From Verrucomicrobiales bacterium (GTDB lineage Bacteria; Verrucomicrobiota; Verrucomicrobiia; Methylacidiphilales; JAAUTS01): a stretch of 38,075 bases of DNA. The DNA is not shown here. Below, a report on this DNA, generated by a model with database tools, continues. The DNA is taken from NCBI GenBank assembly GCA_031279715.1, contig JAITHY010000040.1, positions 1-38,075 on the forward strand. The letters run 5' to 3'.

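Follow-up and report, generated by a model that had tools for sequence, protein, structure and literature searches.

The core CGCTGAC occurs 115 times in the whole contig (1..38075; 61 copies on the + strand and 54 on the − strand), 41 of them with the full 12-mer CGCTGACNNTGA, which gives densities in the window of 3.0 per kb for the core and 1.1 per kb for the 12-mer, with ~2% of the window's bases taken up by word copies. Shuffles of the 38 kb predict 7 cores and fewer than one 12-mer, and protein-preserving shuffles 29 and 5, corresponding to an excess of 16-fold (core) and more than 80-fold (12-mer) over low-order nulls; relative to the codon shuffles that preserve the proteins, the core is 4-fold and the 12-mer 8-fold in excess. 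We regard it as next to impossible that base composition, codon or codon-pair preferences or a recurring peptide gave rise to the word as a by-product, or that it is a REP/MITE remnant. Synonymous shuffles do retain 29 copies against 7 in base shuffles, so that some of the signal stems from the proteins encoded and the codons used, but the 115 observed copies lie 22 standard deviations above the 29 of the protein-preserving shuffle. The excess that the earlier note had put up for testing against an order-5 Markov model persisted for the 12-mer, still 8-fold over a model trained on the window, but not for the 7-mer, whose count is matched by window-trained high-order models; this match is circular and uninformative, because the model learns the word itself. 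Sequence information around the copies is confined to positions −2 to +13 of the logo with no shared flanks past 13 nt, 92% of copies are coding and differences between genomes are, at nearly all orthologous positions, substitutions, none of which is a REP/MITE trait. Together with the scarcity of indels at orthologous sites, the use of four frames, both strands and intergenic DNA, and the densities of only 0.1–0.6 per kb in relatives that match it in GC and gene content, the shuffles and flanks refute both an artefact of codons or composition and a mobile-repeat origin.

Both orientations are equally used, as the earlier note had it, with + to − counts of 61:54, 24:24, 11:11, 23:25 and 10:11 in the five loci counted. 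This balance in 5/5 loci rules out a polar motif of the Chi or KOPS kind. Chi and KOPS/SRS resemble the word in being short and over-represented, and are read by DNA-processing machines, but they are strongly skewed to one strand per replichore and only few-fold over-represented, whereas the word is strand-balanced in every locus and at least 16-fold enriched. Copies within genes occupy four of the five frames that lack a stop (frame counts 40, 27, 22, 15 and 2) and never the CGC-TGA-C stop frame in the window. Intergenic density is 3.5 per kb vs 2.9 per kb in coding DNA, and the contig itself is 95% coding. The use of several frames, two strands and spacers upholds the claim that the word is not a codon effect.

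In the first half of the contig, where we give the coordinates of the core, or of the 12-mer when one is named, and the strand of the copy, the genes within 1–1500 (proB, a YqjE-like gene and an ElaB-like gene) lie on the − strand, and − copies there read in sense as Leu-Thr (34..40 in the partial proB, 851..857 in the YqjE-like gene) or Ala-Asp (195..201, proB). The Wzy_C/TPR gene carries antisense Val-Ser copies on − (2558..2564; CGCTGACAATGA, 2814..2825) and sense copies on + in the Leu-Thr (CGCTGACGGTGA, 2853..2864; 3168..3174) and Ala-Asp (3052..3058) frames. The longest word-free stretch (3175..6014) spans mcsB and the 5′ part of clpC, both encoding highly conserved proteins, and is followed by a sense Leu-Thr copy in clpC (6015..6021, +) and an intergenic copy between clpC and ftsK (7028..7034, −). 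The ftsK gene present in the window includes a gamma domain; its copies are sense Ala-Asp 12-mers on + (CGCTGACAGTGA, 7791..7802 and 9297..9308; CGCTGACGATGA, 8841..8852; CGCTGACGTTGA, 8931..8942), a sense Leu-Thr core (7901..7907, +) and antisense − cores in the Ser-Ala (7965..7971, 8961..8967) and Val-Ser (9202..9208) frames. Beyond it lie sense Ala-Asp copies in the rodZ-like gene (9799..9805; CGCTGACGATGA, 10048..10059; both +), an antisense Val-Ser copy in the CDP-OH-P-transferase gene (CGCTGACCATGA, 10733..10744, −), sense Leu-Thr copies on + in a hypothetical gene (CGCTGACGTTGA, 11140..11151; 11356..11362, 11404..11410, 11620..11626) and in the sigma-70 gene (12940..12946), and an intergenic copy upstream of CitMHS_2 (CGCTGACGATGA, 13171..13182, +). 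CitMHS_2 has sense + copies in the Leu-Thr (13351..13357, 13405..13411, 14149..14155, 14326..14332) and Ala-Asp (14243..14249, 14270..14276) frames and an antisense Val-Ser copy (CGCTGACGATGA, 13468..13479, −). Two facing intergenic cores (left arm 14501..14507, +; right arm 14509..14515, −) then form a perfect palindrome, CGCTGACCGTCAGCG (14501..14515), which takes up the greater part of the 22 nt separating the convergent genes for CitMHS_2 and the Zn-peptidase and is not followed by a T-run. The Zn-peptidase gene is read in sense on − (Ala-Asp, 14650..14656; Leu-Thr, 14894..14900), and an intergenic copy separates it from GT2 (CGCTGACCATGA, 15241..15252, +), where sense − copies are in the Leu-Thr (CGCTGACAGTGA, 15557..15568; CGCTGACGGTGA, 16211..16222; 16351..16357) or Ala-Asp (CGCTGACCGTGA, 16126..16137) frame and antisense + copies in the Ser-Ala frame (CGCTGACTGTGA, 15858..15869; CGCTGACCGTGA, 16035..16046; 16419..16425). 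The PRTase gene has a sense Leu-Thr copy (16725..16731, +) and antisense Val-Ser copies (16979..16985 and 17033..17039, −); a word-free stretch (17040..18446) then covers pfk, which is 90% identical to its orthologue in L001, a locus of the sister clade described below, and ends at an antisense Val-Ser copy in the CHAP gene (CGCTGACAGTGA, 18447..18458, +).

The word avoids constrained residues. Identity between outgroups, the nearest word-free relatives, is 57% at protein columns covered by sites vs 72% elsewhere (p = 7e-4), and the word is rare (0–1 copies per kb) in mcsB, clpC, pfk, pepck and the epimerase gene. According to PMC2817400, Findlay and Redfield likewise found the uptake sequences of Pasteurellaceae (USS) and Neisseriaceae (DUS) in poorly conserved genes and residues. 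Two claims of the earlier note did not survive: mfd, the sole genome-maintenance gene considered, is not enriched in the word, and inverted pairs do not clearly exceed the density expectation, pairs within 60 nt numbering 8 and 7 in the window vs ~5 each expected. A terminator scan of the window came out near shuffle level, with a single perfect pair between convergent genes (14501–14515) among seven intergenic copies in all.

We compared the 38 kb of the window's MAG with 4–23 kb per relative and found the word confined to six loci of one small clade, the comparison extending to outgroups and ~150 further loci. Density in the five related loci is 1.3–3.9 per kb (both forms of the second dialect counted where present), and 0.0–0.6 per kb in the nearest outgroups (66–69% identity) and the ~150 further loci, which have no dominant word of their own; the search in related genomes that the earlier note had called for thus finds the word present in a small clade and near absent from outgroups of similar GC and gene content. 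In JGI metagenomes searched for further relatives, the best Mfd match was 52% identical. Within the clade there are two dialects, with consensus gcCGCTGAC-GG-TGA-c (G dialect) and CGCTAAY-GG-CGA-a (A dialect), which differ at two positions (G5 vs A, T10 vs C). The clade with the G dialect (the window, L002 and L161) and that with the A dialect (L001, L166 and L167) are sisters, and outgroups have neither form. Orthologous site positions (n = 43) are nearly all free of indels and hold unrelated sequence in the outgroups, showing that sites arose by substitution in place. Within a dialect, 33–75% of sites are retained vs 22–29% of other 7-mers across six pairwise comparisons, with p < 0.02 in 4/6 in a small sample of 16–24 sites per genome. 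Turnover is nevertheless high: of 24 window sites in four genes, 12 occur in the window only. Between dialects, CGCTAAC sites of L001 stand exactly where G-dialect genomes have CGCTGAC in 3–4 of 8–9 cases, with the extension changed too; conversion of window sites to the L001 form CGCTAAC is seen in 12.5% vs a 2.6% background, and 4% are unchanged vs 19%. Whatever lies behind it, this conversion of one dialect into the other shows that an active and specific process is at work.

Several of these sites lie in the second half of the contig. In hyp420, sense − copies read as Leu-Thr (CGCTGACGGTGA, 19708..19719) or Ala-Asp (19859..19865), and antisense Ser-Ala copies on + comprise CGCTGACAGTGA (19727..19738), common to L002 and L161 and matched in the A-dialect clade by an oppositely oriented copy at the same position, and CGCTGACCGTGA (20093..20104), whose L166 counterpart is CGCTAACCGTGA. 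In pdxA, sense Leu-Thr copies on − (CGCTGACGTTGA, 20389..20400, common to L002 and L161; 20781..20787; 21165..21171, common to L002, L161 and L001) accompany antisense + copies in the Val-Ser (CGCTGACGGTGA, 20626..20637, common to L002 and L161; CGCTGACGTTGA, 21133..21144, orthologous to CGCTAACGCCGA in L001) and Ser-Ala (CGCTGACAGTGA, 20837..20848, orthologous to CGCTAACAACGA in L001; 21074..21080) frames. The surA gene has sense Ala-Asp copies (21472..21478 and 21943..21949, −) and an antisense Ser-Ala copy (CGCTGACCATGA, 22186..22197, +), and a further copy sits at the surA/mfd junction (22223..22229, −). Sense copies in mfd are all in the Ala-Asp frame on − (23511..23517, orthologous to CGCTAACGGCCA in L001; CGCTGACGGTGA, 24106..24117 and 24175..24186; 24372..24378, L001 counterpart CGCTAATGGCGA; CGCTGACGATGA, 24586..24597; 25065..25071), and antisense copies on + read as Ser-Ala (23346..23352; CGCTGACGGTGA, 24945..24956), Gln-Arg (CGCTGACACTGA, 23536..23547) or Val-Ser (24869..24875). 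An intergenic copy (25455..25461, −) lies right after the pepck stop codon, adjoining a terminator hairpin, and pepck itself has sense Leu-Thr copies on − (CGCTGACGGTGA, 25803..25814; 26228..26234). Sense − copies in acrB are in the Leu-Thr (27947..27953; 29156..29162, overlapping CGCTGACGCTGA at 29157..29168, whose extension is the next core; 30167..30173) and Ala-Asp (29869..29875) frames, and antisense + copies in the Val-Ser frame (28263..28269, 28422..28428, 30033..30039; CGCTGACCGTGA, 30555..30566). The MFP gene has sense − copies (Ala-Asp, 30648..30654 and 30852..30858; Leu-Thr, 31708..31714) and an antisense Val-Ser copy (CGCTGACCATGA, 31694..31705, +). OEP has sense Leu-Thr copies on − (CGCTGACGATGA, 32228..32239; 32371..32377, 32404..32410, 33091..33097) and antisense copies on + (Gln-Arg, 32320..32326; Val-Ser, 32873..32879; Ser-Ala, CGCTGACGTTGA, 32946..32957), and lysR has sense + copies (Ala-Asp, 33630..33636; Leu-Thr, CGCTGACAGTGA, 33917..33928) and one overlapping its 3′ end (34303..34309, +). 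In the CHASE2 gene, sense Leu-Thr copies on − (35375..35381, 35387..35393; CGCTGACGGTGA, 36312..36323) are joined by antisense Val-Ser copies on + (35412..35418, 35454..35460, 35499..35505, 35679..35685, 36357..36363). The next copy is intergenic (36462..36468, +) and lies within a 10-bp GC hairpin (36454–36480), in both its stem and its loop, and atpG follows with sense + copies (Ala-Asp, 36790..36796 and CGCTGACCATGA, 37180..37191; Leu-Thr, 37056..37062) and an antisense Ser-Ala overlapping pair on − (37219..37225 with CGCTGACGCTGA, 37220..37231, whose extension is again the next core).

From these patterns, we give roughly even odds to the word being, in both dialects, a tag for own DNA of the DNA-uptake-sequence type. 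In such a system, a DNA receptor belonging to the competence apparatus of these Verrucomicrobiales would bind dsDNA carrying the ~12-bp asymmetric word in either orientation, and word-bearing fragments would be preferentially taken up and then recombined into the chromosome. Owing to this uptake preference, point mutations that improve a site would be over-transmitted (molecular drive), and the word would accumulate at positions where the protein can bear it, up to an equilibrium of drive, mutational decay and purifying selection. If receptor specificity then shifted in one of the clades, at two positions (G5 to A and T10 to C, or the reverse), old sites would be converted individually to the new dialect. 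DNA uptake as the source of the drive, the existence of a receptor and the competence of the organisms are what we infer; none of the genes for a ComP/ComN-type minor pilin, a type IV pilus, ComEA, ComEC or DprA lies within the 38-kb window, and our literature search on the word and on natural transformation or uptake sequences in Verrucomicrobia and termite symbionts returned no relevant report. Counting against an uptake tag, there is no clear excess of the terminator-forming inverted pairs common for DUS, no enrichment in the one genome-maintenance gene, and a coding share of 92%, above the 34.5% of Neisseria and 65% of Haemophilus given in PMC2817400, although on a contig that is itself 95% coding.

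The Neisseriaceae DUS (AT-GCCGTCTGAA and its dialects, with the minor pilin ComP as receptor) is, like the word, a 12-nt asymmetric sequence with a strong core and semi-conserved ends, present at ~1–3 copies per kb (1–2.5% of DNA) in equal orientations, both within genes, where several frames are used, and in spacers, and its clade dialects also differ at one to few positions and follow phylogeny (PMC3630211). It differs in phylum, the word being found in Verrucomicrobiota, and in coding share (~35% vs 92%), and the word has no clear excess of inverted or terminator pairs. The Pasteurellaceae USS (AAGTGCGGT and ACAAGCGGT types, predicted receptor ComN) is, like the word, mostly in genes (65% in H. 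influenzae) and in poorly conserved genes and residues, avoids stop frames and has two dialects in sister groups, but the word lacks the AT-rich flanking segments and is denser. Uptake sequences reach 0.3–0.8 per kb in H. influenzae, A. pleuropneumoniae and N. meningitidis, from copy numbers in PMC2817400, and ~6000 DUS copies make up 2.5% of the 2.4-Mb genome of Kingella oralis (PMC3630211). The published share of genomes is "up to ~2%". For the three species with 0.3–0.8 per kb, the genome sizes entering that figure are common background values. In sequence, the word is unrelated to both types, and the earlier impression that it matches no known DUS, USS or HIP1 (the hyper-abundant cyanobacterial word) proved right, with similarity at chance level: the best ungapped matches are 6/12 in register with AT-DUS, reached by 39% of shuffled words, and 4–5/9 with USS, shuffled words doing as well in 39–91% of cases overall. 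Given this chance-level match and its Verrucomicrobiales host, the word is an analogue and not a member of DUS or USS. In the literature searched, uptake sequences are described only in two proteobacterial families, and it is about a coin toss whether this is the first such system outside Proteobacteria.

Retention above background suits selection on individual sites equally as well as drive, and the same argument was earlier used for selection on HIP1, a word that is 15–300-fold over-represented, lies within and between genes, is conserved above expectation and has a debated mechanism. By analogy, the word could be what an orphan DNA methyltransferase or another chromosome-associated factor recognises, and be kept by selection for chromosome structure, repair or recombination instead of by uptake bias, a reading we consider unlikely. 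Its over-representation is of the HIP1 order, and its copies too lie inside genes in several frames. However, HIP1 (GCGATCGC) is an 8-nt palindrome containing methyltransferase targets, and typical solitary methyltransferase targets are likewise short palindromes, whereas CGCTGACNNTGA is longer, not self-complementary and has ~10 specified positions over 12 bp; the fast turnover also speaks against it. Most one-mismatch variants of the word are elevated 1.3–4.7-fold and no C-to-T variant is depleted, a spectrum that fits drive on every position and not repair of one. VSP-like repair of a single position was rejected on the lack of a depleted deamination variant and because it would be expected at most to roughly double word frequency, falling short of the at least 16-fold enrichment.

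A further reading, to which we assign quite a low probability, takes the copies as weakly selected sites bound by an abundant sequence-specific protein, which might be nucleoid-associated, might load a chromosome-organising complex or might be a defence or repair nuclease that reads the word as a self-marker to spare the cell's DNA, with the dialects arising from a change in protein specificity. An asymmetric 12-bp site would suit a monomeric DNA-binding domain, and the two-position dialect switch and site retention would suit any protein co-evolving with its sites. On the other hand, sites extrapolated to number in the thousands would each need selection to withstand mutation in bacteria that live with hosts, known markers such as Chi and KOPS are, unlike the word, strongly strand-polar, and fast turnover with plain avoidance of constrained residues is expected of drive, not of positions chosen for function.

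A drive need not involve transformation. The elevated near-miss variants and the concerted two-position switch at orthologous sites would also be expected of templated conversion by, for example, an abundant word-bearing small nucleic acid, two mutations in which would give the second dialect. We hold this to be most unlikely; an Rfam search of the window gave no structured-RNA match, in the 38 kb no repeat exceeds the word in length, no gene resembles those of retrons or DGRs and nothing else points to a template, and we know of no precedent for such a drive. More broadly, it is very doubtful that a genome-wide, sequence-specific conversion drive, neither uptake bias nor a methylation-linked process of the HIP1 type, rewrote thousands of positions including codons in a clade of uncultured Verrucomicrobiales; a change in the specificity of such a drive would have brought a second round of rewriting.

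No example shows molecular drive remodelling entire bacterial genomes and proteomes more clearly than uptake sequences. If the word is indeed an uptake tag, it would be the third of its kind, unrelated to the other two and carried by another phylum with a dialect pair of its own, own-DNA recognition of this type would have evolved repeatedly, and natural transformation would be predicted in an uncultured lineage represented by MAG contigs. The candidate receptor would then be a surface or pilus protein of the word-bearing clade that is missing in outgroups and differs between the G and A clades. If the mechanism is not uptake, the finding would be more interesting still. In practice, the word offers a sharp marker for MAG binning and for spotting foreign DNA. 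The clade probably inhabits termite guts, a habitat read only from isolate and study names.

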